Source of the DNA: Minisyncoccia bacterium
GTDB taxonomy: Bacteria > Patescibacteriota > Minisyncoccia > Phycocordibacterales > UBA9973
Direction of reading: 5' to 3'
Length of the DNA: 51,259 nucleotides
NCBI GenBank assembly: GCA_965656375.1
Contig: CBFHKH010000001.1
Location: 79,432-130,690 of the forward strand
In this document: positions 1,875 to 46,093 of the stretch, piece after piece
How the letters are laid out: each line of letters starts with the position of its first letter
How positions within the stretch are numbered: the first letter of the stretch is position 1
The notes under the pieces: generated by a model
The model's database searches: none
The model's input: the letters and a program-made list of their open reading frames with translations, nothing else
Told to the model about the DNA's origin: nothing
Position numbers and translations under genes: made by a program

Positions 1875-1886
1875 CTGTAACCATAT

Positions 1887-3542: not shown

Positions 3543-3543
3543 T

Positions 3544-3975
3544 ATGAATCCTAAAACTGTTATCATCTTTGGAGTATTTGACGGAATCCACGATGGACAC
3601 CGAGCTTTCATTCATGAAGCAAAACGGCATGGCGAGCAATTAGTAGCCATTGTCGCTCGTGATAGCGTAGTCGAGAAGATGAAAGGTAAACTTCCTGTAC
3701 ATTCTGAAGCGGATCGAATCAAAGCGCTCGTTAACGAGGCAGAAATCGATCTCGTGTACTTGGGTGATCAGGAAGAGGGAACCTACAAAACTCTCAAAGA
3801 ATTGAATCCACAAGTCGTTTTCCTTGGCTATGACCAACAAGCCCTTTTTGATAGTATTAGTATGGCAATGAAAGATGGGCTTTTACCTCATATGGAGACT
3901 CTCTATGGGAAAGCGTATGAGCCTGAACTATACCATTCATCAATCATAAATAAATCCAATGAATCCCGAGACTAA
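3544..3975 (+). CDS. Cytidylyltransferase-like (HxGH) nucleotidyltransferase, RibL/TagD-like
   Basis: FGVFDGIHDGH motif, followed by VARD and LGYDQ segments typical of the family. Confidence 0.75.
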   Translation: MNPKTVIIFGVFDGIHDGHRAFIHEAKRHGEQLVAIVARDSVVEKMKGKLPVHSEADRIKALVNEAEIDLVYLGDQEEGTYKTLKELNPQVVFLGYDQQALFDSISMAMKDGLLPHMETLYGKAYEPELYHSSIINKSNESRD

Positions 3976-5701: not shown

Positions 5702-5703
5702 AT

Positions 5704-11806: not shown

Positions 11807-14107
11807 ATGAACAACGAGATTCCCCACAATAGAGACGTGACGTACTTCGGGCGGACTAATTTTCGCAGTACTAACAATGCGTTTGGTATCAAGCGTAGAG
11901 ATCGACGCCAGCATATGTACGTGCTCGGAAAATCAGGTACTGGTAAGTCTGTACTTCTCTCAAATCTCATTGTTCAAAATATAAACAACGGCGAAGGTGT
12001 CTGTGTGGTTGACCCGCACGGCGAGCTTGTCGAAGAAATCCTCCACCTCATTCCTGATCACAGAGCTAAAGATGTGATTTATTTCAATCCGGCTGATATT
12101 GACTACAATGTCGGATTTAATGTTATTGCGCTTGATGATCCAAAGTACAAGCACTTGGTGGCATCTGGTCTCATGGGAATATTCACCAAGATTTGGGCAA
12201 ATGCATGGAGTTCTCGTATGGAGTACATCCTAAACAATGCGATCCTCGCGCTTCTCGATACTCCGGGGACGACGCTCCTCGGTATTCCGCGTCTACTCGT
12301 CGACAAGGATTATCGTCAGATGATCATCGGTAACTTGAAGGACCCAGTGGTCAAAGCATTTTGGGTGCACGAATATGAACAATGGCGTGAACAATTCCGT
12401 AACGAAGCGATTGCTCCGATCCAAAACAAAGTCGGTCAATTCCTCTCGACTGCTATCATTCGTAACGTTGTCGGTCAATCAAAATCAACCATCGATATTT
12501 TCAAGATCATGAACGAAGGTAAGATCTTCCTCGTGAACGTTTCAAAGGGGCGCGTGGGTGAAGACAACTCTGCGTTGCTTGGAGGTATGATCATTACCAA
12601 GATCCAGCTTGCAGCCATGGAGCGTGTTCGTATTCCTGAAGATGAGCGTAAGGATTTTTATCTCTACGTCGACGAATTCCAAAACTTCGCGACTGATTCA
12701 TTTGCAAACATTCTCTCTGAAGCTCGTAAATATCGTTTGAACCTCATCATTGCCCACCAATACACGGCTCAGCTTTCAAATGAAAATGGTACTGCTGTTC
12801 GTGATGCGGTATTCGGTAACGTTGGTACGATGGTTATATTCCGCGTGGGTGCTGATGATGCAGAATTTATCGAAAAGGAATTCGAACCCGAATTCACTGC
12901 GCAGGATTTGGTGAATTTGCCGAACTACCACATCTATCTAAAGCTTATGATCGACGGAGTCACCAGCCGTCCATTCTCTGCAAGTACACTTCCTCCGATG
13001 AAGGTAGATCCATCAGCGGGAGTAAAGGAAAAGATTATCGAACTATCACGCTCGATCTATGCGCGTCCACGCGAAGAAGTTGAAGCAGAAATCTCAAGGT
13101 GGAGCGGTACACTTCAGACAGTTGAAGGCGAGGCGAAATATAAAGCTGATTGTTCGAATTGCGGTAAATCAACTATGGTCCCATTCGAACCAAAAGAGGG
13201 CAGACCGATATATTGTAAGGACTGCATGTTCAAGATAAAGTCAGGCGAGCTCAAGCCACAGACTGGATTCGTAGCATCAAGATCTGCTCGCCAAGAGGAG
13301 AAGAATTCAACTGCACCTCTTTCTGCCCTCGGAATTGAGTTCCCAAGCGCAGCGACTGATACTCCTCCGCAAACTCCGAGAGCGTTCGAATCACGACCGC
13401 AACAGCGATCTTTTCCACCGAGAAATCCAGGAGTACAATCTCAAGCTCCAAATGGAAATCAACCACCACGTGCGCCAGGACAGTCGCAGAATACGAGTGG
13501 GTACAAACCGATAGAACGCAGACATTCTGGACCATCGCCACTCTTGAAGGGGTTGCTTGAAAAAATTGGGATAGATGATAAAAAATCAGAGAAGAACGCA
13601 GATGTTGTAGAAGTTGTAAAAACCCCTACACCTCCTCCAGTTTCACTCTCTACGCTCAAGAAGCCTGATACGACTACTATTCACAATCTCCCCCCTACAC
13701 CGACGCCGACAAAGGAAGCATCAGAAGAGAAGAAAGCATCACTCAAAGATCTACTTGCGAAAGTAACTCCACAACAGCTAAAAGTAGAGGAAAAGAAAGA
13801 AGTACCTGTTATTCCTACACCGACACTGCACAAGGAAGAGTCAAAACCACAGATAGTAAAAGAACCTGAAACTGCGAAAGTTCCTGTAGCTCCTATCCCT
13901 GTGACACCTGTTGTCCCTCATGTAATGAAACCAGTGGTAGAGGAACCAAAAGTTGAGCAAAAGGCAGAGGTAAAACCCGAAATAAAGGTAGAACCAAAAC
14001 CTGAGCCAAAAAAGGAAGAACCCGTACACGCACAGACTGATCAATGGCAGAAAAAGAAACCACAGAAAGAAGTACCTGAAGATGTCTTAAGAAAAGTCCT
14101 CGAATAG
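11807..14107 (+). CDS. VirD4/TraG-like P-loop ATPase with a CxxC-x17-CxxC zinc ribbon and a low-complexity P/K/E tail
   Basis: GKSGTGKS, DPHGE, LYVDEFQNF, EARKY, then CSNC-x17-CKDC and a Pro/Lys/Glu-rich C-terminus. Confidence 0.85.
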   Translation: MNNEIPHNRDVTYFGRTNFRSTNNAFGIKRRDRRQHMYVLGKSGTGKSVLLSNLIVQNINNGEGVCVVDPHGELVEEILHLIPDHRAKDVIYFNPADIDYNVGFNVIALDDPKYKHLVASGLMGIFTKIWANAWSSRMEYILNNAILALLDTPGTTLLGIPRLLVDKDYRQMIIGNLKDPVVKAFWVHEYEQWREQFRNEAIAPIQNKVGQFLSTAIIRNVVGQSKSTIDIFKIMNEGKIFLVNVSKGRVGEDNSALLGGMIITKIQLAAMERVRIPEDERKDFYLYVDEFQNFATDSFANILSEARKYRLNLIIAHQYTAQLSNENGTAVRDAVFGNVGTMVIFRVGADDAEFIEKEFEPEFTAQDLVNLPNYHIYLKLMIDGVTSRPFSASTLPPMKVDPSAGVKEKIIELSRSIYARPREEVEAEISRWSGTLQTVEGEAKYKADCSNCGKSTMVPFEPKEGRPIYCKDCMFKIKSGELKPQTGFVASRSARQEEKNSTAPLSALGIEFPSAATDTPPQTPRAFESRPQQRSFPPRNPGVQSQAPNGNQPPRAPGQSQNTSGYKPIERRHSGPSPLLKGLLEKIGIDDKKSEKNADVVEVVKTPTPPPVSLSTLKKPDTTTIHNLPPTPTPTKEASEEKKASLKDLLAKVTPQQLKVEEKKEVPVIPTPTLHKEESKPQIVKEPETAKVPVAPIPVTPVVPHVMKPVVEEPKVEQKAEVKPEIKVEPKPEPKKEEPVHAQTDQWQKKKPQKEVPEDVLRKVLE

Positions 14108-16717: not shown

Positions 16718-17296
16718 TTACTGAATCTTTTCTAGCGCTTTTGGGATTTTATTAAAATCTTTTATGAGGGTTTCGCGCATGCCGCCGTTGTAGAGCGCTG
16801 CAGCTGGATGGTAGAGAGGAAGGAACGCTTGTTTCTTATCGAGTTCTGGAATATTTTTGATCAAGAGTTTACCATGGATATCTCCGATTTTTTCCGTAGG
16901 GAAGAATCGCCCCATGGAGTGTCGTCCGAGGAAGACGATGAGCTTCGGCTGTATTATTTTGAGTTCACTTATAAGCCATTCATTACATGCTGCTTTTTCT
17001 TCGGGTAACGGATCCCGATTGTTTGGCGGACGATATTTAACGATGTTAGTTATATAGATATCTTCGCGTTTCATTTTTATATTCTCAAGCATCTCTGCTA
17101 AGAATTTTCCACCCGCACCTATAAATGGTTTACCTTGCAGGTCTTCATTTTTCCCAGGTGCCTCACCAATAAAAACAATATCAGTATTTGCATTTCCATC
17201 ACCAAAGACGGCCTGTGTTGCAGTTTTTTTCAATTCACACATACAGTGTTCCTGCCAGTACGCATTCAATTCATCAAGCTGTTGTCGCTTTGTCAT
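16718..17296 (-). CDS. Uracil-DNA glycosylase, family 4-like
   Basis: FIGEAPG, GKPFIG, TNIVKYRPP.NRDP and YHPAA motifs. Confidence 0.9.
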   Translation of the reverse strand: MTKRQQLDELNAYWQEHCMCELKKTATQAVFGDGNANTDIVFIGEAPGKNEDLQGKPFIGAGGKFLAEMLENIKMKREDIYITNIVKYRPPNNRDPLPEEKAACNEWLISELKIIQPKLIVFLGRHSMGRFFPTEKIGDIHGKLLIKNIPELDKKQAFLPLYHPAAALYNGGMRETLIKDFNKIPKALEKIQ

Positions 17297-18807
17297 TATT
17301 TCAATATTGTAATCTCTGCACCGATAGAGTTCAAGCGCATTGCTACATCTTCGTAGCCACGGCTGATCATGTATACGTTACGCAATATTGATGTGCCTTC
17401 AGCGGCAAGCATAGAGATAAGGATCACCATAGAAGGACGAAGTGCCGGTGGGCAGACGACTTGGGCAGCTTTGAGCGGTGTTCCGCCAGTTACATAGATG
17501 CGGTGCGGATCAGCAAGAGTGACACTTGCTCCTAATCTATTGAGTTCAGTTGCGTATATTGCACGGTTCTCGTAGAACCAATCGTGGATGAGGGTCGTAC
17601 CAGTAGCGCGTACTGCGATAGGGACGAAGAAGGGAAGATTGTCTATATTTATACCTGGATAGGTATTTGCATGGATCTTGTCGTGAAGGGCTTTGAATGT
17701 ACTTGGCAATATTTCTATATCGACGAGTTTTGTCTTTTCGTTTTTGGATACGTACTTGTTAAGTATTTTATATTTAAGGCCCATTTTCTTGAGCTTGTAG
17801 AGTTCGAGTGTGAGGAAGTCTATCGGGCAGCGATTGATAGTGAGCGTGGAGTCAGTCGCGATCGCAGCTGATATAAACATCATCGATTCGATCGGATCTT
17901 CACTATTGTGATACTCGACATCCATATTGATATCTTTCACACCTTCGACGACAAGTGTACCAGTTCCAATGCCATCAATCTTCACACCAAGCTTTTGGAG
18001 GAAGAAGCAGATTTCCTGAACCATGTAGTTACCACTTGCACATTCGATCGTAGTTGCCCCTTCGATCTTTGCTGCAGCCATGAGTATATTTTCGCATGCA
18101 GTATCACCAGCTTCATACATGACGATGTCAGCAGATTTGAGTGTATTTACAGTTATATCATAGGTAGTATTTGTAGTTTTTACTTTAACTCCGATCTCAT
18201 CGAGCGCATATCGATGTGCAGAAATAGTGCGCTTACCTAGGTTGCATCCTTGTGCGTGGGGAATTGAGAATGAAGGCAACAAGTGCACGAGTGGGCCCAT
18301 GAGCATGATGATAGATCGCGTTCTGATCGCTGATTGAACGTTCAAGTTTTCTAGCTTGAGCTTCTTTGGTGGAACTACTTCTACACAATTCTGACTTGTC
18401 CATGTGATTTTGACACCAATGCTCTCGAGGATCTCTATGACTCGATATACTTCCTCGATTCGCGCGATGCCATGAAGTGTTGTTTTTCCTTTGTTGAGGA
18501 GTGTTGCGCAGAGAAGCCCCACAGATCCATTCTTTGAATAGCTTGTCGTTATAGATCCATGTAGCTTTTTACCTCCGACGATTTGAAAATCAATAGAGTC
18601 ATTGATAGCTACTATTTGGTGATCAAGAACGGTGCTGATTTTTGAGAGGAGTTCAGTCGTAAAATTTTGTTCACCCTTTTCCATGCGGGCGACAGCGCTC
18701 TGAGAAGTACCAAGCTCTTTGGCAAAGGCTCCTTGGGTAAGCTTCCTACGCTCACGAAGTTCCTTGATAAAAAAGCCTATTTTCTGCTGATCTGATTGTT
18801 TTTTCAT
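17296..18807 (-). CDS. murA: UDP-N-acetylglucosamine 1-carboxyvinyltransferase with an N-terminal XRE helix-turn-helix
   Basis: N-terminal LRERRKLTQGAFAKELGTSQSAVARME (XRE HTH), then an EPT fold with SKN, GCNLGKR (catalytic Cys loop) and DPH. Confidence 0.9.
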   Translation of the reverse strand: MKKQSDQQKIGFFIKELRERRKLTQGAFAKELGTSQSAVARMEKGEQNFTTELLSKISTVLDHQIVAINDSIDFQIVGGKKLHGSITTSYSKNGSVGLLCATLLNKGKTTLHGIARIEEVYRVIEILESIGVKITWTSQNCVEVVPPKKLKLENLNVQSAIRTRSIIMLMGPLVHLLPSFSIPHAQGCNLGKRTISAHRYALDEIGVKVKTTNTTYDITVNTLKSADIVMYEAGDTACENILMAAAKIEGATTIECASGNYMVQEICFFLQKLGVKIDGIGTGTLVVEGVKDINMDVEYHNSEDPIESMMFISAAIATDSTLTINRCPIDFLTLELYKLKKMGLKYKILNKYVSKNEKTKLVDIEILPSTFKALHDKIHANTYPGINIDNLPFFVPIAVRATGTTLIHDWFYENRAIYATELNRLGASVTLADPHRIYVTGGTPLKAAQVVCPPALRPSMVILISMLAAEGTSILRNVYMISRGYEDVAMRLNSIGAEITILK

Positions 18808-27144: not shown

Positions 27145-27804
27145 TTAATCATTAAAAATAATAAATTCTCCCGCATGTTTCAATGCTTGTGCTGGTTGAA
27201 CTCGGATAGGATGTTCATCTTCTAACTCTTTGAGAGTTTGCTTCTTGTTTTCTCCAACTGCATATACTACAACTTCATCTAATTTTGAGATAAGAGCTGG
27301 CGTGACCGTTACTCTCAAATATGCCCCTCCTTGATAGCTAGAAATAAAATCTAAACTTTCAGCTGCTGGACTTTCTGGAAGTATGCCCGCGGTGTGTCCA
27401 TCAGGACCGATACCAAACAAGCCAATTTTGTAGTCAGAATTTTCTATACATTTTTGCATGAATTCCTCACACTGCGCGACTGTGTTTTCGATAGTCTCAC
27501 CAGTCAGGAAAGGGTAGATATTCGCATTACCCAGAATAAGACCTGATTGGCGTAATTGTTCCCAGCTTGAATCGGTATGGCCACTCTCCCCATACCGCTC
27601 ATCAGTTAAGGTTATGGTGAGATTCGCAAGATCCATTCCTTCTAAAGCTTTCATTACGAGAACGGCAACTTTGATCGCTGAGCCGCCTGGAATTAAAAAA
27701 AGAACCTTCTTTTTATCAGAGAGTTTTTGTTTTAAAACTTCTGCAATATAGTCTGTTGCAGCTTGTGCGGGGTTTCCACTTGTGCGAAATTGAGCATTGG
27801 TCAT
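27145..27804 (-). CDS. pgl: 6-phosphogluconolactonase
   Basis: PGGS, LTDER, GIGPDGHTAGI, GENK; in an operon with gnd and zwf. Confidence 0.85.
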   Translation of the reverse strand: MTNAQFRTSGNPAQAATDYIAEVLKQKLSDKKKVLFLIPGGSAIKVAVLVMKALEGMDLANLTITLTDERYGESGHTDSSWEQLRQSGLILGNANIYPFLTGETIENTVAQCEEFMQKCIENSDYKIGLFGIGPDGHTAGILPESPAAESLDFISSYQGGAYLRVTVTPALISKLDEVVVYAVGENKKQTLKELEDEHPIRVQPAQALKHAGEFIIFND

Positions 27805-28065
27805 ATAAACGTATTCTAGCATATTCGTACTAATTCCATTATTTGAAAATATCGCTCTTTCTGGTATATTCTATCCATGTCACTCTCTATTGGAATGGAG
27901 TGAACACAATTCCGAATCCAGAAGGCGATGAAAATAAAAATGCAGCCGTTATTCCCTTTGAATTTGCGATAGAAATCCCTGAGACTGGGAAAAAGCAAGA
28001 TCAAATTAATAAAGTAACCAGCTGCGCTGCTTAAGCTAAAAATGAAATTGTGATATAGTTAAAGG

Positions 28066-28563
28066 GTGAAACTCCCGGGAGAAAATAATTATGCACTTAT
28101 TGATGGCGCAAACCTTCATAGAGGCTTACAAGCCCTTGGGTGGGATCTTGATTATAAGAAGTTCAGGGTTTGGCTGACTGACAAATTCTCTATTACACGT
28201 GCGTATATTTTCCTTGGGAATATTCCTAAATATAGCAAACTCTATGCTCACTTACAGGAATGTGGCTATACTCTTATTTTTAAAGAAGTGGTATATGATG
28301 GAAGCGGAAAAGCCAAAGGGAACTGTGATGCTGACCTGGTATTAAAAACAGTGCAGGAGTATTATGAAGGAGGTTATGATAAGGCCCTTATTATTTCAAG
28401 CGACGGAGATTATACCTCACTGGTAAATTTCTTGATAACAAAAGGTAAATTAAAAGCGATCCTTTCTCCGGCTAAAGAAAGTAAGTGTTCAGTATTACTG
28501 AAACGTACGGGAGCTAAAATATCATACATTAATGATCAACGATCTCATATTGAACTAAAATAA
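28066..28563 (+). CDS. NYN (LabA/DUF88, PIN-like) ribonuclease-domain protein
   Basis: ALIDGANL, KGNCDADLV and ISSDGDY acidic motifs. Confidence 0.85.
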   Translation: MKLPGENNYALIDGANLHRGLQALGWDLDYKKFRVWLTDKFSITRAYIFLGNIPKYSKLYAHLQECGYTLIFKEVVYDGSGKAKGNCDADLVLKTVQEYYEGGYDKALIISSDGDYTSLVNFLITKGKLKAILSPAKESKCSVLLKRTGAKISYINDQRSHIELK

Positions 28564-28613
28564 AAAAGCCCCCGATGGAGACAGAACTCCATAAGGGTCT
28601 TTTTCGTGGTTAT
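28560..28613 (-). ncRNA. Candidate ~50-nt small RNA convergent on the NYN gene
   Basis: Predicted from the promoter at 28620-28648. Folds as AAAAAGACCC / ATGGAG-N6-CTCCAT / GGGGCTTTTT and ends in a U-tract. Confidence 0.45.
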
Positions 28614-28619
28614 GTGCAC

Positions 28620-28648
28620 ATTATAACCATACCAGGATTTTTTTGCAA
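28620..28648 (-). promoter_or_regulatory. Sigma70-type promoter TTGCAA-N17-TATAAT
   Basis: TTGCAA at 28643-28648, exactly 17 nt spacer, TATAAT at 28625-28620 on the minus strand. Confidence 0.65.
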
Positions 28649-28734
28649 GTATTTGATTGGATAAAGACATTTTGCTAATCCTGCAAATTCCCCTCCCTTA
28701 CACCACATCATACAGATGGCTACAATGTAGCTAT

Positions 28735-30039
28735 ATGAGCGATATAACCTACATCGGCACTACCAACTGGCGTAACCAGAACAAACGTTTTGGTATCATC
28801 GACAAAGACAGGTTTGGGCACATCTATGTAATCGGTAAGACAGGTGTTGGCAAATCAACCCTGTTGTTAAATATGGCTGTTGCAGATATAAAAAACGGGA
28901 AAGGGCTTTGTATCATTGACCCCCACGGTGATATAGCGGAAGCTTTACTTGATCATATACCAGCTGAGAGGATAGAGGATGTAATATATTTCAACCCTAA
29001 AGATACCCGGTACCCCATAGGCTTCAATCCGCTGAAAGCAGTCCACCCAAATTACCATCACCTGGTGGCTTCAGGGCTTGTTTCAACATTCAAAAAGATA
29101 TGGGCTGATTCCTGGGGTCCGAGGCTTGAATACATTCTGCGCTTTGCTGTACTCACATTGCTTGAATACCCCAACGCCACTCTTCTTGATATCCAACCCT
29201 TGCTTACAGATACATACTTCAGGAACAAGGTGATGGCCTATGTAACAAATCCCCATACACAATCTTTCTGGACACATGAGTTTGATAAATACAGCCCCCA
29301 GTTCAAATCAGAAGCGATAACACCAATCCTTAACAAGACAGGTGTATTTCTGACAAGCATTCCACTGCGAAATACAGTCGGACAGACAACCAATAGTTTC
29401 AGGATGCAGCAGGTACTTGATGAGGGAAAAATATTAATCGTCAACCTTTCAAAAGGAGAACTAGGAGAAGATGCATCTTCCATATTAGGCAGTGTCCTGG
29501 TTACGTCTATCCAGTTGGCTGCTTTGTTCCGTTCAACCCAACAGGAACATGAACGCAAACCTTTTTATCTCTACGTAGATGAAATGCACTCTTTCATCTC
29601 CCTGTCATTTGCCGATATTTTGTCTGAAGCACGTAAATACAAGCTCTCCTTGTTTCTTACCCACCAGTATATTGAACAAATAGATGAAAGGATCAGGGCT
29701 GCTATATTTGGCAATGTGGGCACGCTCATATCATTCCGGGTTGGTGCAGAAGATGCAGCACACCTGGCCAAAGAATTCCAGCCTGAATTTGCGGAAGCTG
29801 ATTTTGTAATCCTTCCCAAATATCACATGTACCTAAAGCTGATGATTGAAGGGGCTAGTTCAAGACCCTTCAGTGCAACGACCCTGCCGCCTCAGGAAAC
29901 TTCAGGTAAAGTGAGGGATGCGGTAATAGCATGTTCACGCAGAAACCATGCGAGAAAACGGGAAGCTGTTGAGAAAAGTATTTTAAGCAAGTACCCCAAA
30001 TCAAAAGAAGCAAATAACAGAAAGGGGTTGTTTGATTAA
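28735..30039 (+). CDS. VirD4/TraG-like P-loop ATPase (start moved to ATG 28735)
   Basis: GKTGVGKS, DPHGD, LYVDEMHSF, EARKY; collinear with the 11807 ATPase domain. Confidence 0.85.
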   Translation: MSDITYIGTTNWRNQNKRFGIIDKDRFGHIYVIGKTGVGKSTLLLNMAVADIKNGKGLCIIDPHGDIAEALLDHIPAERIEDVIYFNPKDTRYPIGFNPLKAVHPNYHHLVASGLVSTFKKIWADSWGPRLEYILRFAVLTLLEYPNATLLDIQPLLTDTYFRNKVMAYVTNPHTQSFWTHEFDKYSPQFKSEAITPILNKTGVFLTSIPLRNTVGQTTNSFRMQQVLDEGKILIVNLSKGELGEDASSILGSVLVTSIQLAALFRSTQQEHERKPFYLYVDEMHSFISLSFADILSEARKYKLSLFLTHQYIEQIDERIRAAIFGNVGTLISFRVGAEDAAHLAKEFQPEFAEADFVILPKYHMYLKLMIEGASSRPFSATTLPPQETSGKVRDAVIACSRRNHARKREAVEKSILSKYPKSKEANNRKGLFD

Positions 30040-30163
30040 ACAGGTATCGAGATAACATAAAAGACCATTTGGGAAGATTAAAAGTTACCACTTTGTGGTA
30101 TTGTAAATGGCTATCTATATAACTATTTTGTAATTCATTTTCTCTCACAAAAAACCTTATGTT

Positions 30164-30775
30164 ATGACCACCTTCCAGCTTATACCGGAAATGTTCCCAA
30201 TGATATTTCTACTGTCCTTTGGCTCAGAGGAGTTTTCAATTTTTCTTGCTTTGCTTGTAATAGGCCTCATAGCGTATATCGTTATAAAAGCAACTAACCG
30301 GTCAATACGGGTAGTACATGCTCATTGGCATCATATGTTTGATACCAGGCCATTTGCCCCCAAAGAGTTCTATGAATACCTGAAGAATGATATACAAGAA
30401 AAAGGAATTGAAGGCATTTCATTCAGGGGAATAGTACACTCTGAACGGGGGCTTCTCTCTGCCAATCGTGCATATCTGCGAATACTGTATCGGGAATATA
30501 TGATTGATGTATGTGCCGCTCCTTTTGCCAAGGAAGCTTTCTTTGTTTCCTGGTGGCTTGGTGATGCCGGGATTACCTTTCGTGATTTTCTGATATGCAT
30601 ACCAGCTATCGGCAGATTATTCAGCCGGAGAGAAAAGACCTTTTATGAACAGGACACCGAGATCATGTTCAAAGAAATTATTGCAGGCTGTGTCAGAGAT
30701 GCGATTGAAAAGCTCACCGAAGAAAAAGGAAAGCGATTAACAATGGCAGATTGGAGAGGTTCCGATATTAAATAA
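30164..30775 (+). CDS. Hypothetical protein with an N-terminal TM segment
   Basis: 203-aa ORF in the same orientation between two ATPase genes; hydrophobic IFLALLVIGLIAYIVI. Confidence 0.7.
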   Translation: MTTFQLIPEMFPMIFLLSFGSEEFSIFLALLVIGLIAYIVIKATNRSIRVVHAHWHHMFDTRPFAPKEFYEYLKNDIQEKGIEGISFRGIVHSERGLLSANRAYLRILYREYMIDVCAAPFAKEAFFVSWWLGDAGITFRDFLICIPAIGRLFSRREKTFYEQDTEIMFKEIIAGCVRDAIEKLTEEKGKRLTMADWRGSDIK

Positions 30776-30783
30776 AGTAATCC

Positions 30784-33700
30784 ATGATGTCTCTTTCACA
30801 TGCTGAATACTACACGTATCAATACTATACGTGGGAATACCGGGGACGGGGTTGGTTTGTGGCAGAGCAGCCGGTATGTCTGGAACCTCCCTATATTCCT
30901 TTTTTCAGGCATGGATATACTCCTCAACATGTTGATGATGGCAAGCGACATACACTTGTAAGCAGGTTCATCGAGTACATTAAGGGCAAGAAACAGGAAC
31001 AACCTGGTGAACAAAAGGTATTAGATTATGAAGAACTGGAGCCTTTTGGTGTTGAAAAGGAAACTGGTTTAAAGGCGGTACAGGTAAAACTACCTAGAGA
31101 AAGGAAAATAACTCCAGAGAAGATGAAAGCATTGCTTGTGATGCTTTCGCAATCAGGTACAACCATTTCATTTGAAATAATCGGCACCGCAAAAGAGATT
31201 GTTCTACAATTTGTGTGCAGCGCTGCAGATATCACTATTACAAAAACATACCTGGAGGCATACTTCCCTGAGTATACACATATATCCAGTGATGAACTAC
31301 TTGAAAATATCATAGTTGAGAATAAGCAAACAGCCGTTATTGATTTTGGGTTGCAACAGGAGTTTGTCAGACCAATTCAAGTGGTAAAGAATTTTACTAT
31401 TGATCCGCTGACTGGACTATTTGGAATACTTGATCAACTTCATGGTGATGAACAGGCGGGAATACAAATACTTTTTCAGGGAACAGTAAACCACTGGAGT
31501 GAAAGCATTGTTCGCAGTGTTACGATGTCTGATGGTAGCTCATTCTTTAATGACGATCCCAATGCGCCAAAGGTTGCACTGGAGAAGATACAAAGCACAC
31601 TATTTGGTGTTACTATCCGGGCCTTCACACATGCAGATACACAAGCAGATTCATTCGGGATAGTGCAAAAGCTGAGTTATGCAATTATGAATGCTTCGGT
31701 AAGCACAATCAATCAATTAATACCGCTCTCATCCGAAGACTATGATTTTGAAACAAGGGTACGTGATATCTGTCTGCGTGAATCACACCGCTTGGGTATG
31801 CTGTTGAATGCAGATGAACTTACAACCCTGCTTCACTTCCCATCCGAGAGTATCAGCTCCAAAAAATTATTCGCTTCCATGCGAAAGACCAAGGAGGTAC
31901 CAGGCATAGCCAAAGGAAAGGCGTTTGTACTGGGAGAAAATTATCACAACGGTATAACAGGCAAAGTAACGTTTGGTATTGAGGACAGATTAAAGCATAC
32001 CCATATCATCGGAGCAACCGGCACGGGCAAATCAACCCTCATTGCAAACCTAATCACCCAGGATATTGAACAGGGTCATGGTATTGTACTCTTTGATCCA
32101 CACGGGGACCTGGTAGATGATGTTATTGCATCAATACCCGAGAAACGGATACAAGATGTGGTGCTGGTTGATCCGTCAGATACAGCATATTCAGTAGGGT
32201 TAAATATCCTTGAGGCCCATAGTGATGTCGAGAAGGAAGTACTTTCATCAGACCTGGTTGCTGCATTCAGGAAATATTCCACTTCCTGGGGCGACCAGAT
32301 GAATGCCGTTTTTGGTAATGCGATACTTGCAGTACTTGAAAATACAGAAGGAGGAACACTCAATGACATCCGGAGGTTCTTGATTGAAAAAGACTTCAGG
32401 CAAAAGTATCTTAAGAATGTAACCGACCCTTCGGTGATATATTACTGGCAGAAAGAGTATCCACTGATTAAAACAAATTCTATTGGCCCAATACTTACCA
32501 GGCTAAATACATTCCTGCGACCCCGTGCCATTCGCAATATGGTCATTCAGCATAAAGGGCTTGATTTTGAAACCCTGCTCAATACGAAAAAGATTGTTTT
32601 GCTTAAACTCTCACAGGGATTGATTGGTACTGAAAACAGTTTTTTGTTGGGTTCGTTAGTGCTTTCCAAAATTCACCAGGCCATATTCAGACGACAGCAA
32701 CAGGCCATTCGCAACCCGATCTTTCTGTACCTCGATGAGTTTCAGAACTTCATTACCCCATCTATCAAGGAAATGCTAAGTGGCATCAGGAAGTATAATG
32801 TCGGACTTACTTTATCCCACCAGGATTTACAGCAACTGCAACGGGAAGATGGAGAATTGTTAAACAGTGTCCTCGGCAACATCAATACCAGGATTGTGTT
32901 TCGAGTAGGTGAACCTGATGCAAAAAAACTTCAGGATGGCTTTACGGGCTTTGACTTTACAGATCTCCAGAATTTAAGCAGGGGAGAAGCTGTCATACGC
33001 ATAGAACAGCCACAGTATGATTGTTCGCTGGATACATTTGCGCTCAGGGAAGTATCAGGTGAACAGCGGAAGAGCAATATAGAATCCGTAACCGCCTTTT
33101 CACGGAAAGAGTATGCAAGTCCGAGGGAAGAAGTTGAAAAAATGCTTTTTGAAACCCTTGATCTTGAAATTCAACCAACAGAGAAGAATGATACCCCACT
33201 GCATGAAGTAAAAGAAAAGAAGCAAAAGGATGAGAAGCTTGTACCAGTTGTAACTGACACAGATAAGCCTGTAGCAACAGAGAAAAAATCTGAACCAACA
33301 AAAGAGGTAAAGGAAGGAAAAGACATAACCACTCACCGCTATTTGCAGACATTGGTAAAGAAGATGGCAGAATCAAGGGGGTATATCGCAGTTCTTGAAA
33401 CACAGGTGCCGGATGGTAGCGGGTTGGTAGATGTGTTACTTACCAAGGAGAACAAAACTACAGCCATTGAAATATGCAGCACTACTGATGCAGACTGGGA
33501 GATGCATAACATACAAAAGTGTATTGATGCAGGCTATGATACCATCATATCTCTCTGTGGTGATATAAAGCAGCTTGAGAAGATCAAAAAGAAATGTCTC
33601 GAATATATTCCTGCAATTACCGGAAAGGAAGTCTATTTCTTTACTCCTGATACACTTTTTGCATTTTTAGATACAGAAACCAAAGCAACAGTTCCCCCAG

Positions 33701-33831
33701 AACAGGTTATTAAAGGCTATCGGGTGAATGTAACCTATGATGCAGTTTCCCTTGAAGATATGCAGCGCAAACGGGCCTCTGTAGCACAAGTGGTGATGAA
33801 TTCGCTCAGAAAAAGAAAGAAGGGAAGTTAA
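30784..33831 (+). CDS. Large VirD4/TraD-like ATPase with an N-terminal extension and a C-terminal PD-(D/E)xK-like domain
   Basis: GATGTGKS, DPHGD, LYLDEFQNF, RKYNVGLTLSHQ; C-terminal HRYLQ...VDVLL...AIEIC. Confidence 0.8.
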   Translation: MMSLSHAEYYTYQYYTWEYRGRGWFVAEQPVCLEPPYIPFFRHGYTPQHVDDGKRHTLVSRFIEYIKGKKQEQPGEQKVLDYEELEPFGVEKETGLKAVQVKLPRERKITPEKMKALLVMLSQSGTTISFEIIGTAKEIVLQFVCSAADITITKTYLEAYFPEYTHISSDELLENIIVENKQTAVIDFGLQQEFVRPIQVVKNFTIDPLTGLFGILDQLHGDEQAGIQILFQGTVNHWSESIVRSVTMSDGSSFFNDDPNAPKVALEKIQSTLFGVTIRAFTHADTQADSFGIVQKLSYAIMNASVSTINQLIPLSSEDYDFETRVRDICLRESHRLGMLLNADELTTLLHFPSESISSKKLFASMRKTKEVPGIAKGKAFVLGENYHNGITGKVTFGIEDRLKHTHIIGATGTGKSTLIANLITQDIEQGHGIVLFDPHGDLVDDVIASIPEKRIQDVVLVDPSDTAYSVGLNILEAHSDVEKEVLSSDLVAAFRKYSTSWGDQMNAVFGNAILAVLENTEGGTLNDIRRFLIEKDFRQKYLKNVTDPSVIYYWQKEYPLIKTNSIGPILTRLNTFLRPRAIRNMVIQHKGLDFETLLNTKKIVLLKLSQGLIGTENSFLLGSLVLSKIHQAIFRRQQQAIRNPIFLYLDEFQNFITPSIKEMLSGIRKYNVGLTLSHQDLQQLQREDGELLNSVLGNINTRIVFRVGEPDAKKLQDGFTGFDFTDLQNLSRGEAVIRIEQPQYDCSLDTFALREVSGEQRKSNIESVTAFSRKEYASPREEVEKMLFETLDLEIQPTEKNDTPLHEVKEKKQKDEKLVPVVTDTDKPVATEKKSEPTKEVKEGKDITTHRYLQTLVKKMAESRGYIAVLETQVPDGSGLVDVLLTKENKTTAIEICSTTDADWEMHNIQKCIDAGYDTIISLCGDIKQLEKIKKKCLEYIPAITGKEVYFFTPDTLFAFLDTETKATVPPEQVIKGYRVNVTYDAVSLEDMQRKRASVAQVVMNSLRKRKKGS

Positions 33832-33867
33832 TCTCAATGAAGGAATCTCAATGTGGAAAGCAAAACC

Positions 33868-34086
33868 TTATTCAAAATCAAATAAATCCTTCACAGACAC
33901 CTTTAGTTCAAGCGCAATCAAAAAAAGCGTTTTAGCAGTAGGATTTCCATGCCCCTTTTCCAAGTAGTTCATCCACTGCCTGTCCTTATCAATCCGTAGT
34001 GCCAGCTCTGTTTGACTCAATCCTGATTTTTTACGGACAGCAGCGATATGTTTTCCGAGCTTTTTCTGAAAGGTATCAATACTCAT
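33868..34086 (-). CDS. XRE-family helix-turn-helix regulator
   Basis: GLSQTELALRIDKDRQWMNYLEKGHGNPT. Confidence 0.9.
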   Translation of the reverse strand: MSIDTFQKKLGKHIAAVRKKSGLSQTELALRIDKDRQWMNYLEKGHGNPTAKTLFLIALELKVSVKDLFDFE

Positions 34087-34124
34087 GCTATGGCTTAATA
34101 GGCCACAAGGTTGAGTATTTCAAA

Positions 34125-34160
34125 AAAAATATTGTAAAGATATATCTTTACAATATTTTT
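34125..34160. promoter_or_regulatory. Perfect 36-bp palindrome, probable operator
   Basis: AAAAATATTGTAAAGATATATCTTTACAATATTTTT between the divergent XRE and lipoprotein genes. Confidence 0.7.
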
Positions 34161-41572: not shown

Positions 41573-44500
41573 ATGGCTTCGAGAAAACTCTATACCCTGC
41601 TGCTTCTATCCATGGTATTTGGCTCTTATGCAATGGCTCAAACACCAGCGCCATACCAGCCCAATGTTAAAATAAATTATATCAGGGAATGGTCTCCCAC
41701 AGCACCTATAACAGATGCCACACAGGTGCCAATACGTGTAGTTGAAGAGGTAAAAACTTCAACAGCCTACGTTGACGGCTTGGGAAGGCCCTTACAGAGT
41801 ATCAGTAAACAGGCCTCGCCGTTAAAAAAAGATTTAGTGAGTGCGGTTGTATATGATGAATTGGGAAGAGAAACATATAAGCACCTCCCTTTTGTTTCTT
41901 CCAACACAACCGGAGGTTCTGAAATTACTGATAATGGTTCTTTTAAATTGAATCCTTTTCAGCAGCAACAGATATTTATGACAGCGCAGTATGGCAGCCA
42001 AGGTGAAACCTATTTTTATAGCCAGACCGATTATGAAGCGTCACCTTTAAACAGACCAGTAAAGAGTTTTGCGCCGGGTAACAGCTGGGTGGGCAGCAGG
42101 GGAACCGGAAATGAAAAATCTGTGCAGCAGCAATATAGCTTTAATAGTGTGAATGATGAGGTAAAGGTATTTACTATTTCTGCTGCACAAGGGAGCTTTC
42201 CAACCAGCAATTCGGATTATGGTCCGGGTCAATTGTTTAAGAATACGGCAATAGATGAACGTGGTAATAAGGTGGTGGAATTTAAAGACAAAGAAGGTAA
42301 GATAATATTAAAAAAAGTTCAGGCAGCAAATTCTGTAGCAGACGGACATGACGGTTGGCTTTGTACCTACTATATTTATGATGAGTTTGGACAGCTTCGC
42401 TTTGTATTGCCTCCAAAAGCTACAGAGGCATATATTAATAATGCATCCATTAGCAGTCTAGCAGATGAACTCTGCTACAGGTATGAATACGATGTCCGTC
42501 ACAGAATGATTATCAAAAAGTTGCCCGGTTCAGCAGAGATTTGGCTGGTATATGATTCCAGGGACAGGCTGGTGATGATGCAGGATGGTAATTTACGAAG
42601 CAGTAGTAAATGGGTTGTTACGGTATATGATATATTGAACAGACCGATACAAACTGGATTATTAACAGATGCTAATACAACATTTGCCACACACCAGAAT
42701 AATGCAGCTGGGTCAGCCAATTACCCACCAACAAGCGGATTTGAACTGTTGGGCGAAAATTATTACGATGATTATAGCTGGGTGGCTGCAAGCGGTACAT
42801 CGCTAACTGCAACAGTTGATGCAGCCAATTTTAACAACAACGATTATTTTATCACCAGTTATAATGCAGCACCGGCTTATGCATTGCCACTTGCAGCAAA
42901 TTATAATATTAAAGGGTTACCAACGGGAATCAAATTAAAAGTATTGGGTACAACAAATCAGTTTATTTACTCTGTTTTGTTTTATGATGAGAAAGGAAGA
43001 GCTATACAATCACAAGTAATCAATATAAGCGGGGGCAAAGATATTACCACTACGCAATATGATTTTAGCGGTAAGCCTTTGAGAAGTTTGATTCAACATA
43101 ATAAGGGTGGTAACAATCCTCAAAGCCATACGATAATAACGAAATTGGAATACGACCATTTGGGTAGAATTACTTATGTACGTAAAAAAATTACATCGGT
43201 AGTAAATAATCAGAATATAACCACACCGGAAAGAACTCTTATACAGAATAATTATGATGAATTGGGTCAGCTTAAAGCAAAAAAAATTGGTAACAAACCA
43301 GGCAGCGTTGAAGAGCTGGAAGCTCTTAATTATGATTATAATATACATGGCTGGCTGCTGGGTGTTAACAGGAATTATATAAATGCGGCATCAGCAGATG
43401 GAAACTATTTTGGTTTTGAATTAGGTTATGATAAACAGGCTGCTGCAGTAACTGGCACTAATTATACTAACCCCCAATTTAACGGTAATATCAGCGGCAG
43501 TACCTGGAAAAGCAAGGGGGATAATGAAAGGCGTAAATACGATTTTACTTATGATAATGTGAACCGGCTTTTACGGGCGGATTTCTCGCAGTACACAGGA
43601 GGCAGTTTTAATACCAGTGCTGGTGTGGATTTTACGCTTATAATGGGTATTAACGGCCAGGATTATACCAGTGCCTACGATGCCAACGGAAACATAAAAA
43701 AAATGCAACAGTGGGGGCTGAAAATAAATGCCAGTGCACAGATTGATGATCTTGATTACAGCTATTACGACAATAGTAATAAACTTAAAAATGTACGGGA
43801 TGCGCTGAATGATGCAACAAGCAAACTGGGCGATTTTAAAACCTCCGGATTTCACCCGCAGAATTCATCAAAAGCAGCGGCTACGACACAAACACTAAGG
43901 GATGCCATAACTGACTATACTTATGACGCCAACGGAAATTTAAAAAGGGATTACAACAAGGATATTGGTGATGCTGGTACCGATGGTATGCTGTATAATT
44001 TTTTAAATCTGCCCTCTGTAATTACTGTAAAAAAAGATGCAACGGTAAATAATAACAAAGGTACAATCACTTATACCTATGATGCCAGCGGGGCAAAACT
44101 CAAAAAGGAAACACAGGAATTAAACAGTACTGTAGCATATAATGGAACAAACTATATCAGTAATATTATAACGGTTACCACTTATATTGCCGGGTTTGTT
44201 TACCAATCCAAAAATTACAGCAATACAGCCTTGGCTTCATTAAATGAGGATGAAATATTACAGTTTACCGGGCAGGAAGAAGGAAGGATACGGTTTATAC
44301 CTGCAACCGGCAACAAGCCTGCAGATTTTGCCTACGATTATTTTATAAAGGACCACCTGGGTAATACACGCATGGTGCTTACAGACGAAATGCAGCAGGA
44401 TATTTACCCTGCAGCCTCTCTAGAACCGGCATTGGTGAATACTGAAAGTGCATTCTATACCATTGACCAAGGTCGCATTGAATCAAAGACAGCCATTATA

Positions 44501-46093
44501 GGGATGAATAATATCAATTATCCCAATAATAATGGTATACTTAATAATAATCCAGACTGTGGTAGCGGCACTTTGTGTACTACCGATAACAGCACCAAAC
44601 TATACCGCCTTAAAAGCAATGAGGTTCAAACCGGTTTGGGAATTACCTTAAAAGTAATGGCTGGCGACAGGCTGGATGTGTTTGGAAAAAGCTTTTATAA
44701 CCAGAACAATCCTGGAAGTGGATATAGTAATACTTTACCGATACTTGACCTGCTGGCAGGATTTTTAAACAGTTCCGGGGGTATTGTATCTCAAAGCAAG
44801 GGAGCAGTAACACCCGCACAGATAAATACAACACAGGGTACACAGGGCATCAATAGTATGACGCTTCAGCAAACCAATCAGCATAGTAATTATCCCCTTA
44901 GACCACTTGCTTTCATTAACGTAATATTCTTTGACGAACAGCTAAAAGCGGTTGATTATAAAGTTAGTATGGTGGGCGATAACGGTGTTTTGAAAGATCA
45001 TTATACAGAGTTGCAAAATCTAACAGTTCCAAAGAATGGATTTGTGTATATTTACTGTAGTAATGAAACTCAGGTAAATGTGTTCTTTGACAATATTCAG
45101 GTTGTACATACAAGAGGGCCTATTCTTGAAGAAACACATTATTATCCATTCGGTTTGATAATGACTGGAATAAGTACCACTGCAAGTAATAAACTGGAAA
45201 ATAAAAATAAATTTAATAGGGGCACAGAATTAAATACTGATTTTTCACTTAATATATATGAAACGGATTTTAGAAATTATGATGCACAAATAGGGAAATT
45301 TTTCCAAATAGATCCACTTGCAGATGCCATTGATTTTCAAAGCCCATATTCTTTTGCGGATAACAACCCAGTATCATTAAATGACCCATTAGGACTTGAG
45401 GCTGAGGAGGCAGATTCCGATAAGGGTAAAAAGGGAAAGAAGCAATCTAAGGAATCTTCTTCCAATCAACACACTCCCAAAAAAGTAGTAGTGCCTGGCA
45501 AAACTGTTGCCAGAGTTACACCGGTTTCGCCAACACCGGTGCCTCTTCCTCCTGTGCCCCCACCTAGCGTAACACCTACACCGGTTGAGCCACCAATTCC
45601 AACTCCAACTACACCACCAATTCCTGAGGTGAATCCGCTGCCAGAACCGACACCTGTTCCAGCTCCTCTTTTACTCCCTGCTGTATTTACTGCGATTCTC
45701 GTCGGGATACCAATTTCTACTGGAACCGAAATTACTCCACAAGAAAAAGAAAAATTTTGGTGGGATAAAACGAGATATGATCCTTATCCGGGACATGGAA
45801 ATAAAAAAGAAAATCGGAATAATCATATTGTTTATTGTTTTACTTTTACTCCGATTGATGGATTGACGCCTGTACTAAAATATGGTATTTCTGATGAATT
45901 TAGGTATAGCTTAGATAGACCTGAAAGACAATTATATGGCCTACAATTGAAATATGGATGGAGCGTTAAATTAACAATTTTGATGCGTGCGCCTAATAGA
46001 GAGTTAGCTCTGTTATATGAACAGCAGCTCGTAATTAATCATCAATTAGCTTGGAAAGGAGCGAATCCTAGAGCACAGTTTAGGCCATTTTAG
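41573..46093 (+). CDS. Exported RHS repeat-associated-core polymorphic toxin (DUF6443-like N-terminus)
   Basis: Signal peptide ending AMA|Q, YVDGLGRPLQ, YFIKDHLGNTR, ETHYYPFG, RNYDAQIGKFFQIDP, NNPVSLNDPLG, then a variable tip. Confidence 0.9.
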   Translation: MASRKLYTLLLLSMVFGSYAMAQTPAPYQPNVKINYIREWSPTAPITDATQVPIRVVEEVKTSTAYVDGLGRPLQSISKQASPLKKDLVSAVVYDELGRETYKHLPFVSSNTTGGSEITDNGSFKLNPFQQQQIFMTAQYGSQGETYFYSQTDYEASPLNRPVKSFAPGNSWVGSRGTGNEKSVQQQYSFNSVNDEVKVFTISAAQGSFPTSNSDYGPGQLFKNTAIDERGNKVVEFKDKEGKIILKKVQAANSVADGHDGWLCTYYIYDEFGQLRFVLPPKATEAYINNASISSLADELCYRYEYDVRHRMIIKKLPGSAEIWLVYDSRDRLVMMQDGNLRSSSKWVVTVYDILNRPIQTGLLTDANTTFATHQNNAAGSANYPPTSGFELLGENYYDDYSWVAASGTSLTATVDAANFNNNDYFITSYNAAPAYALPLAANYNIKGLPTGIKLKVLGTTNQFIYSVLFYDEKGRAIQSQVINISGGKDITTTQYDFSGKPLRSLIQHNKGGNNPQSHTIITKLEYDHLGRITYVRKKITSVVNNQNITTPERTLIQNNYDELGQLKAKKIGNKPGSVEELEALNYDYNIHGWLLGVNRNYINAASADGNYFGFELGYDKQAAAVTGTNYTNPQFNGNISGSTWKSKGDNERRKYDFTYDNVNRLLRADFSQYTGGSFNTSAGVDFTLIMGINGQDYTSAYDANGNIKKMQQWGLKINASAQIDDLDYSYYDNSNKLKNVRDALNDATSKLGDFKTSGFHPQNSSKAAATTQTLRDAITDYTYDANGNLKRDYNKDIGDAGTDGMLYNFLNLPSVITVKKDATVNNNKGTITYTYDASGAKLKKETQELNSTVAYNGTNYISNIITVTTYIAGFVYQSKNYSNTALASLNEDEILQFTGQEEGRIRFIPATGNKPADFAYDYFIKDHLGNTRMVLTDEMQQDIYPAASLEPALVNTESAFYTIDQGRIESKTAIIGMNNINYPNNNGILNNNPDCGSGTLCTTDNSTKLYRLKSNEVQTGLGITLKVMAGDRLDVFGKSFYNQNNPGSGYSNTLPILDLLAGFLNSSGGIVSQSKGAVTPAQINTTQGTQGINSMTLQQTNQHSNYPLRPLAFINVIFFDEQLKAVDYKVSMVGDNGVLKDHYTELQNLTVPKNGFVYIYCSNETQVNVFFDNIQVVHTRGPILEETHYYPFGLIMTGISTTASNKLENKNKFNRGTELNTDFSLNIYETDFRNYDAQIGKFFQIDPLADAIDFQSPYSFADNNPVSLNDPLGLEAEEADSDKGKKGKKQSKESSSNQHTPKKVVVPGKTVARVTPVSPTPVPLPPVPPPSVTPTPVEPPIPTPTTPPIPEVNPLPEPTPVPAPLLLPAVFTAILVGIPISTGTEITPQEKEKFWWDKTRYDPYPGHGNKKENRNNHIVYCFTFTPIDGLTPVLKYGISDEFRYSLDRPERQLYGLQLKYGWSVKLTILMRAPNRELALLYEQQLVINHQLAWKGANPRAQFRPF

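Follow-up and report, generated by a model that had tools for sequence, protein, structure and literature searches.

The locus described here raises the question of whether a small bacterial ribonuclease and a small RNA encoded opposite its 3' end belong together, and whether the RNA might keep the enzyme in check. It is located in a stretch of 51,259 nt from a Minisyncoccia bacterium (the window, by which we mean this whole stretch), and the source genome, with about 40% G+C, belongs to the Patescibacteria (candidate phyla radiation). The protein-coding gene specifies an NYN (LabA-like) ribonuclease (RNase). A first inspection of the sequence, referred to below as the original prediction, had proposed that this gene and a convergent small RNA form an RNA-antitoxin or abortive-infection module. 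Comparison with related loci indicates that the window carries a single copy of a self-contained cassette of two genes, a mobile unit that recurs in hundreds of related bacteria and is widespread among the Patescibacteria. That the RNA would be an antitoxin-like negative regulator of the NYN RNase is a reading to which we give an even chance. The features of the cassette are the following:

28066..28563, plus strand: gene of the NYN (LabA-like, PF01936) ribonuclease, family A; 165 aa, GTG start, TAA stop at 28561-28563.
28557..28613, minus strand: predicted small RNA of about 55 nt, with the 5' tail AUAACCAC, a long hairpin and a U-tract; from covariance model, promoter and terminator.
28613, minus strand: inferred start of the RNA, an A; from the conserved promoter geometry.
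28562..28605, minus strand: hairpin of the RNA, also a bidirectional intrinsic terminator; three tiers of 7 + 4 + 6 bp and a 6-nt loop.
28605-28599 with 28568-28562, minus strand: lower stem of the hairpin, GAAAAAG/CUUUUUU.
28597-28594 with 28573-28570, minus strand: middle stem, CCCU/GGGG.
28592-28587 with 28580-28575, minus strand: upper stem, AUGGAG/CUCCAU.
28586-28581, minus strand: loop, UUCUGU.
28620..28648, minus strand: promoter of the small RNA; -35 TTGCAA at 28648..28643, 17-nt spacer, -10 TATAAT at 28625..28620; 10/12 consensus matches.
28051..28648, no single strand: extent of the mobile NYN and small RNA cassette; from the limits of nucleotide homology and the -35 end of the conserved block.

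The ends of the window RNA were inferred from the positions of its promoter and terminator. Both of these elements had been announced by the original prediction and both were found in place: the hairpin follows the NYN stop directly, starting with the last two bases of the TAA codon and folding into three tiers (28562-28605) instead of the two proposed, and the minus-strand TTGCAA-17-TATAAT promoter is present at 28648..28620. The folding energy of the hairpin is -17.7 kcal/mol on the plus strand (z = -3.3) and -20.8 kcal/mol on the minus strand (z = -4.1). Its stem stands between an A-tract and a U-tract and reads as a hairpin followed by a U-run on either strand, as is characteristic of an intrinsic bidirectional terminator. 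With the covariance model of the RNA (R1), a single copy was detected in the window, scoring 81 bits on the minus strand versus 20 bits on the plus strand. The RNA had been supposed to lack an open reading frame (ORF), and indeed no conserved ORF was found within its approximately 55 nt; the internal AUG is part of a covarying stem, relatives having GUG, GCG, ACG or AUA in its place, and a coding role was rejected on the grounds that this codon is not conserved. The minus-strand promoter considered alone is not above chance, with 7 promoter-like sites in 1.3 kb versus 4.3 expected, and its significance comes from the comparison with relatives. Two further observations concern this region. At 28606-28630, the imperfect palindrome GTGGTTATGTGCACATTATAACCAT coincides in part with the -10 hexamer and the small RNA start and can fold on the plus strand into a hairpin of 9 bp; the other loci do not conserve it, and it may be a lineage-specific operator or a product of chance. 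The idea that the RNA gene serves as an att-like integration site was dismissed, as only one chance match of 13 nt exists elsewhere in the window.

For the comparison, 80 loci from different Patescibacteria species were fetched via the NYN protein. At the 3' end of NYN, 80/80 loci contain a common block of about 90 nt, always oriented alike, so that the RNase gene and its convergent small RNA do make up a conserved self-contained unit, as had been suspected. In this block, a -35/-10 promoter, at fixed spacing, precedes a conserved 5' tail, after which come a 17-bp hairpin and a U-tract. In the alignment of these loci, the consensus on the strand opposite to NYN reads TTGACA, about 17 nt, (TG)nTATAAT, 6-7 nt and AUCACUACGAAAAAGACCCUUAUGnGGUUCCGUCCnCAUCGGGGGCUUUUUCUUUU, and the conserved block ends at the -35 hexamer. 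The -35 is TTGAC[AT] in 61 of the 80 loci, the -10 fits TAnnnT in 78 and is extended by TGn in 50. In 77 loci the -10 ends 12-13 nt ahead of the conserved ACGA, which places the RNA start at the A corresponding to window position 28613; the start at about 28613 and the RNA length estimated beforehand agree with this geometry. An antisense promoter with at least 10/12 matches within 150 nt downstream was detected for 142 of 176 NYN-like ORFs (81%) versus 34 of 835 other ORFs of the same loci (4%). A search of Rfam 15 gave no match at the gathering score, the best sub-threshold hit reaching 18 bits versus a cut-off of 70, the search at a relaxed E-value included.

The hairpin of the 80 loci bears the marks of selection at the RNA level. 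Its 17 bp are paired in 99.0% of the alignment cells, 10 pairs are changed on both sides and 147 cells are compensatory, values for pairing and compensation that were reached by none of 500 shuffled controls. Structures slid by 1-3 columns dropped to 44-73% paired, and RNAalifold arrived at the same structure unguided. The covariation was replicated in metagenome copies, gathered with a search pattern that fixes the lower stem only: aligned to R1, they were 98.9% paired, with 170 compensatory cells. The test suggested together with the original prediction, namely to look behind homologous NYN genes for promoter conservation and hairpin covariation, was strongly positive. G·U pairs occupy 129 cells on the minus strand, while A·C combinations there, which would be G·U on the plus strand, occupy only 10, and we therefore take the minus-strand transcript to be the RNA under selection. 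Read along NYN, its stop codon comes ahead of the hairpin in 36% of the loci, falls within it in 51% and follows it in 13%; in 64%, the reading frame enters the RNA gene. Free covariation in the upper stem alters the encoded tail, and GCCCCC and GGG are invariant, third-codon positions included (e.g. GCC CCC); the CCC/GGGG stem is unchanged in 80/80 loci. Because the position of the stop varies while GCCCCC and GGG are fixed even at third-codon positions, the constraint on the hairpin is, judging from the alignment, not one of protein coding. It also goes far beyond what a terminator needs, given that the sequence is conserved across the phylum and the G·U pairs are biased to one strand. Altogether, the comparative data show a real and conserved RNA gene, predicted to be read toward NYN and to have its terminator hairpin in common with it.

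The NYN RNase fold assumed at the outset was confirmed by several approaches. In a profile search, residues 11-136 of the window protein matched Pfam PF01936 with 49.2 bits (cut-off 24.2). The AlphaFold2 model (pLDDT 91.6) gave a TM score of 0.71 to the LabA-like structure 2QIP, which was also matched in a sequence search of the PDB, and of 0.60 to the NYN domain of MARF1. In an alignment with 34 homologues, D13, D88, D90, D113 and D115 were invariant or nearly so, and the protein thus has the PIN-like alpha/beta fold with the conserved acidic cluster by which members of the NYN family are recognized. Another bacterial NYN enzyme, associated with CRISPR in B. fragilis, is reported to be a non-specific, Mn-dependent nuclease of single-stranded RNA (ssRNA) (10.1101/2024.04.08.588522). 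From the intact active site and the assay of that enzyme, we infer that the window NYN is probably a small metal-dependent ribonuclease. More than 2,300 relatives were retrieved, every named one labelled Patescibacteria and the nearest named ones being Candidatus Nomurabacteria; as far as sampled, family A is a minimal stand-alone NYN domain confined to this phylum. The promoter of the NYN gene is weak, with at least 10/12 matches in 4 of 76 loci versus 65 of 80 for the RNA promoter.

Next to the fetched genomes, a pattern scan of metagenome contigs yielded at least 120 RNA copies. Among the matches listed, 100 of the 116 assessable copies show the canonical arrangement at the 3' end of NYN, 16 are non-canonical, and 4 more are too near a contig end to judge. 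About 11 of the non-canonical copies stand alone as RNA genes whose promoter is intact, no NYN being present in the vicinity. As for other such copies, that of L188 adjoins an internally deleted NYN, in L161 and L191 an NYN paralogue of 47% identity comes after the RNA, and two lie on short contigs, L096, whose only NYN gene (27% identical) flanks the RNA gene on its opposite side, and L160, where only 184 nt are available on the NYN side. The RNA was present at 8/8 loci fetched through NYN proteins, and an intact NYN lacking the RNA was found at none of the 88 loci examined. These counts show that the predicted RNA gene is tightly but asymmetrically linked to the NYN RNase gene. The surroundings of some unlinked copies may be mentioned. 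In L180 (reversed, with the RNA on the plus strand at 5116-5159), the copy adjoins an ORF of 1459 aa (652-5031), whose N-terminus (…YALSKTLRFSLIPV…) may resemble the N-terminal motif of Cas12a. In L145 (ORFs at 5631-6069) and L160 (ORFs at 5104-5797), both also reversed, pairs of small ORFs stand beside the RNA, which, by eye from their translations, resemble HicA/HicB and RelE/XRE-type toxin-antitoxin genes.

A second NYN gene in tandem, 40-47% identical, occurs in L082, L178, L191/L161 and L071, and each NYN gene has a separate convergent RNA gene built in the same way. The variant RNAs retain the 5' AUCA start and the apical loop GGUUYYGUCC; their lower stem and 5' tail differ. A search with the family B protein returned at least 7,987 clusters at E <= 1e-10, family A counted in, and the B-type RNA was found at 5/5 fetched family-B loci; in L119, it is kept beside a mere C-terminal scrap of NYN-B. 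The design extends to distant NYN ORFs, where a convergent consensus promoter, a hairpin and a U-tract of unrelated sequence were found in L135, L159, L133, L007 and L002 and likewise in L034, L162, L115, L139 and L149; four other distant NYN ORFs have no such combination. At the level of gene arrangement, these pairs show that NYN and RNA move as a unit and diversify as cognate pairs. In L205, two B-type small RNA genes of different subtypes stand in tandem after one NYN-B (3477-3536 and 3591-3648, minus strand), and a PemK-family toxin gene is located 1.1 kb upstream.

The cassette, of about 600 bp, was found in changing surroundings. Nucleotide homology of the window is limited to 28051-28614 with L202 and to 28051-28625 with L203, both in unrelated contexts. 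The 273 nearest neighbours of NYN fell into 249 sequence clusters, and a Pfam scan of 142 of them returned 183 families, none occurring in more than 3 and housekeeping genes being mixed with occasional mobile-element or restriction genes; a conserved gene neighbourhood or defence island was rejected on the basis of this clustering and scan. PADLOC gave weak hits only, with nothing beyond the NYN fold. In L201 and L203, the loci most closely related to the window, with NYN proteins 97% and 86% identical to its own, a serine recombinase of 585-587 aa is encoded directly upstream of NYN and TraD/TrwB-like ATPase genes lie downstream. The corresponding features of the window are:

27882..28031, plus strand: remnant of a serine recombinase, last 50 codons; tblastn match to residues 538-587 of the 587-aa L201 recombinase, 88% identity.
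28737..33831, plus strand: downstream genes of the element, given as context only; from Pfam/NCBIfam matches and identity to L201.
28737-30039, plus strand: TraD/TrwB-like ATPase gene.
30164-30775, plus strand: ORF of 203 aa.
30784-33831, plus strand: gene of a 1015-aa TraD/TraG-like ATPase.

The window and L201 have 91% nucleotide identity over 27883-34154. Since the recombinase is reduced to 50 codons, with full-length copies and TraD-like genes present in L201 and L203, the window cassette is seen to be part of a decayed integrative element related to conjugation and to sit at its edge. The recombinase remnant is fused to the region upstream of a pgl gene, its full-length counterpart in L201 occupying 4206-5969, and at the other end of the region common with L201 a reverse BLAST match revealed a perfect inverted repeat of 30 nt (about 34131-34160), which may be a terminator or an element boundary. 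Within the window we also noted four paralogous genes of TraD/TrwB/HerA-like ATPases (399-1874, 11807-14107, 28737-30039 and 30784-33831), with a treble-clef zinc finger (zf_Tbcl_2) in one of the four and in a neighbouring ORF of 563 aa (7424-9115); these ATPases may serve in conjugation, DNA uptake or defence. A protein of 1506 aa with DUF6443 and RHS repeats, of the polymorphic-toxin type, is encoded at 41573-46093 and followed by small ORFs with no family match up to about 47965, in a region that includes a stretch of 29% G+C at 46-47 kb, and an ORF of 503 aa (17296-18807, minus strand) has an unusual fusion of an N-terminal HTH_3 (XRE-type) domain with an EPSP-synthase-fold domain. In L207, a Patescibacteria contig of 680 kb, an NYN-B cassette with RelB-family and APH-family kinase genes (2376-5881) is inserted between rplB (L2) and rpsS (S19) of an otherwise intact ribosomal protein operon.

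How the two genes of the cassette might act on each other can be outlined as follows. A strong sigma-70-type promoter would drive the RNA gene, which faces the weakly promoted NYN gene, and the hairpin with its U-tract would end the RNA, terminate the NYN gene too and overlap the NYN 3' end. The resulting abundant RNA would be the cognate restraint on the NYN RNase. In a first step, it would pair as an antisense RNA with the 3' end of the NYN mRNA, over the last 17 or so codons in most relatives and over only the stop codon and the 3' untranslated region (UTR) in the window, leading to double-strand-specific cleavage of the NYN message or to a message lacking its stop codon. In a second step, compatible with the first one, the NYN protein would bind the hairpin directly and sequence-specifically, which would explain why the CCC/GGGG stem is invariant and the loop conserved, and why unlinked RNA copies exist. 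Upon loss of the RNA, or a halt in its supply, the RNase would be unchecked, and in this way the cassette would stabilise its mobile element.

Several lines of evidence are in keeping with such a restraint. The antisense overlap at the 3' end, which looks ancestral and is found in most relatives, supports a type I-like action of the RNA. Since the lower stem is invariant, the loop is common to the families and unlinked copies exist, the sequence invariance of the RNA suggests recognition by a protein as well, presumably NYN. Toxin-antitoxin logic would fit the promoter imbalance in favour of the RNA, the lack of a fixed genomic home together with the mobile elements and the nearby toxin-antitoxin genes, and the asymmetry by which the RNA occurs without NYN and NYN never without the RNA; by analogy, it would also fit the cleavage of ssRNA by another bacterial NYN enzyme. 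With somewhat less than even confidence, we further suggest that families A, B and the distant ones constitute, in Patescibacteria, a large superfamily of horizontally mobile cassettes of NYN RNase and convergent, promoter-driven hairpin RNA, which would be a new class of RNA-antitoxin or RNA-controlled RNase which unites antisense overlap at the 3' end with protein-RNA recognition and in which cognate pairs would be insulated from each other by the lower stem and the 5' tail.

A number of results speak against an antitoxin role. With 60-86% identity across Patescibacteria classes, NYN is unusually conserved for a toxin, and the overlap with the RNA is limited, in the lineage of the window, to the stop codon and the 3' UTR. 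Defence genes were not enriched among the 142 NYN neighbours scanned with Pfam, and viral contigs gave 0 matches to the RNA pattern. Known plasmids and phages carry no close NYN relative, the NYN genes of rhizobial plasmids being less than 36% identical and phages giving nothing; at one rhizobial locus (L209), viewed by eye, no comparable downstream element was seen, which says nothing either way. The observation that NYN is never without the RNA might simply come from the RNA gene supplying the terminator of NYN, and the roughly 10% of RNA copies that are unlinked could instead point to a function of the RNA apart from NYN. This last possibility leads to the main rival explanation, according to which the RNA is a stable trans-acting RNA with its own cellular role and NYN is not inhibited by it but is its ribonucleoprotein partner, either as its processing enzyme or as a nuclease guided or activated by it. 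We consider this rather unlikely, but it would readily accommodate the near invariance of the unpaired and lower-stem nucleotides, the GGUUYYGUCC loop common to families A and B, the copies with intact promoters far from any NYN gene, the strong and constitutive-looking promoter and the high conservation of the protein. It is harder to reconcile with a patchy, cassette-like distribution that has no fixed genomic home, with the existence of tandem paralogous pairs, and with the decay of NYN where the RNA is kept, which is unexpected if neither works without the other. A search for conserved complementarity to the NYN 5' region likewise gave nothing, other targets not having been searched, and trans pairing with that region was rejected, the mean duplex energy being -21.2 kcal/mol versus -25.1 kcal/mol for random windows.

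A plainer explanation, which we regard as improbable, is ordinary cis-antisense control of a non-toxic housekeeping RNase, where the RNA would tune the stability or termination of the NYN mRNA with no part in addiction or defence. The convergent, overlapping arrangement, the entry of the ORF into the RNA gene in 64% of the loci and the use of one hairpin as bidirectional terminator by both genes are what one would expect from it; such control, however, needs no conservation of primary sequence, yet CCC/GGGG is fixed in all 80 loci while the upper stem varies, and neither the unlinked RNA copies nor the shifting of the cassette between genomic sites and its presence in mobile elements would be anticipated. 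Finally, a generic bidirectional terminator next to a chance promoter-like sequence in AT-rich DNA might have been suspected from the window alone, given that promoter-like sites are not enriched there. This has a negligible probability, since conservation extends, over about 200 loci, to sequence, structure, promoter position and strand asymmetry, and the promoter accompanies 81% of the NYN-like ORFs versus 4% of the control ORFs; the comparative data refute it. Restraint of the NYN RNase by its RNA is the reading that we favour.

In the searchable literature, we found no description of an NYN-associated small RNA, nor of such an RNA in Patescibacteria, and the main text of a survey of 224 motifs makes no mention of NYN, LabA or DUF88, or of Parcubacteria or the candidate phyla radiation. 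The RNA of the cassette amounts to a new RNA family, and the module is previously undescribed, although the pairing of an RNase gene with a dedicated regulatory RNA is known as such. A conserved structured small RNA with about 200 copies and clear covariation, outside Rfam 15, would be added for a phylum whose RNA biology is almost unknown, and it would provide a functional handle on the stand-alone NYN/LabA-like proteins of bacteria. If the RNA does restrain the RNase, the cassette would be a module of the toxin-antitoxin type with a new toxin fold and with an RNA mechanism bridging types I and III. Its location in integrative elements of ultra-small symbiotic bacteria bears on the persistence of those elements.

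With the LabA-like NYN proteins 2QIP (VPA0982), the NYN domain of MARF1 and the CRISPR-associated NYN of B. fragilis, the window protein has in common the fold and the acidic active site, but a dedicated convergent small RNA gene has been reported for none of those. The original prediction had drawn its analogy from type III and AbiF-type systems. In type III systems (ToxIN, CptIN, TenpIN and AbiQ/antiQ) and with the abiF RNA motif, an endoribonuclease is likewise combined with a structured RNA that comes in cognate variants and, in the cassette, would probably be bound by the protein. On architecture, this analogy fails. In type III and abiF systems, direct repeats make up the RNA, which precedes the toxin gene in one operon and is processed by the toxin; the latter has the ToxN/AbiQ or the HEPN fold; here, there is a single RNA unit downstream, convergent and with its own promoter, no tandem RNA repeats of the type III kind were found in 27600-29000, and the fold is NYN and not ToxN/AbiQ. 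Lacking a repeat array, and with another toxin fold and another RNA placement, the cassette does not belong to the canonical type III systems. A type III-like binding of the RNA by NYN is nevertheless suggested by the invariant nucleotides and the cognate variants.

Nuclease toxins are also known from type I systems, as in SymE/SymR and RalR/RalA of E. coli. There, as proposed here, a nuclease is combined with a small RNA, and the toxin is curbed by antisense RNA; however, the antisense RNA SymR covers the 5' end of symE with its start codon, RalA works in trans together with Hfq, and the protein folds are AbrB-like and that of RalR, not NYN. In txpA/RatA and bsrG/SR4 of B. subtilis, type I pairs overlap at their 3' ends and the toxins are small membrane peptides. 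These pairs resemble the NYN cassette in the convergent small antisense RNA, the 3' overlap, the stronger promoter of the RNA and the compact autonomous unit that is often found on mobile elements. They differ in the toxin, which in the cassette is a soluble NYN enzyme of 165 aa and not a small hydrophobic peptide, and in the extent of the overlap, which exceeds 100 nt in txpA/RatA and bsrG/SR4 versus about 55 nt in the cassette, where it takes in the stop codon in the window and up to about 17 codons in 64% of the relatives. Moreover, the RNAs of those pairs are not known to be conserved in sequence across a phylum, while the unlinked copies and invariant nucleotides of the NYN cassette hint at recognition beyond pairing. 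In its layout, the cassette is closer to the type I pairs that overlap at their 3' ends than to type III or abiF systems.
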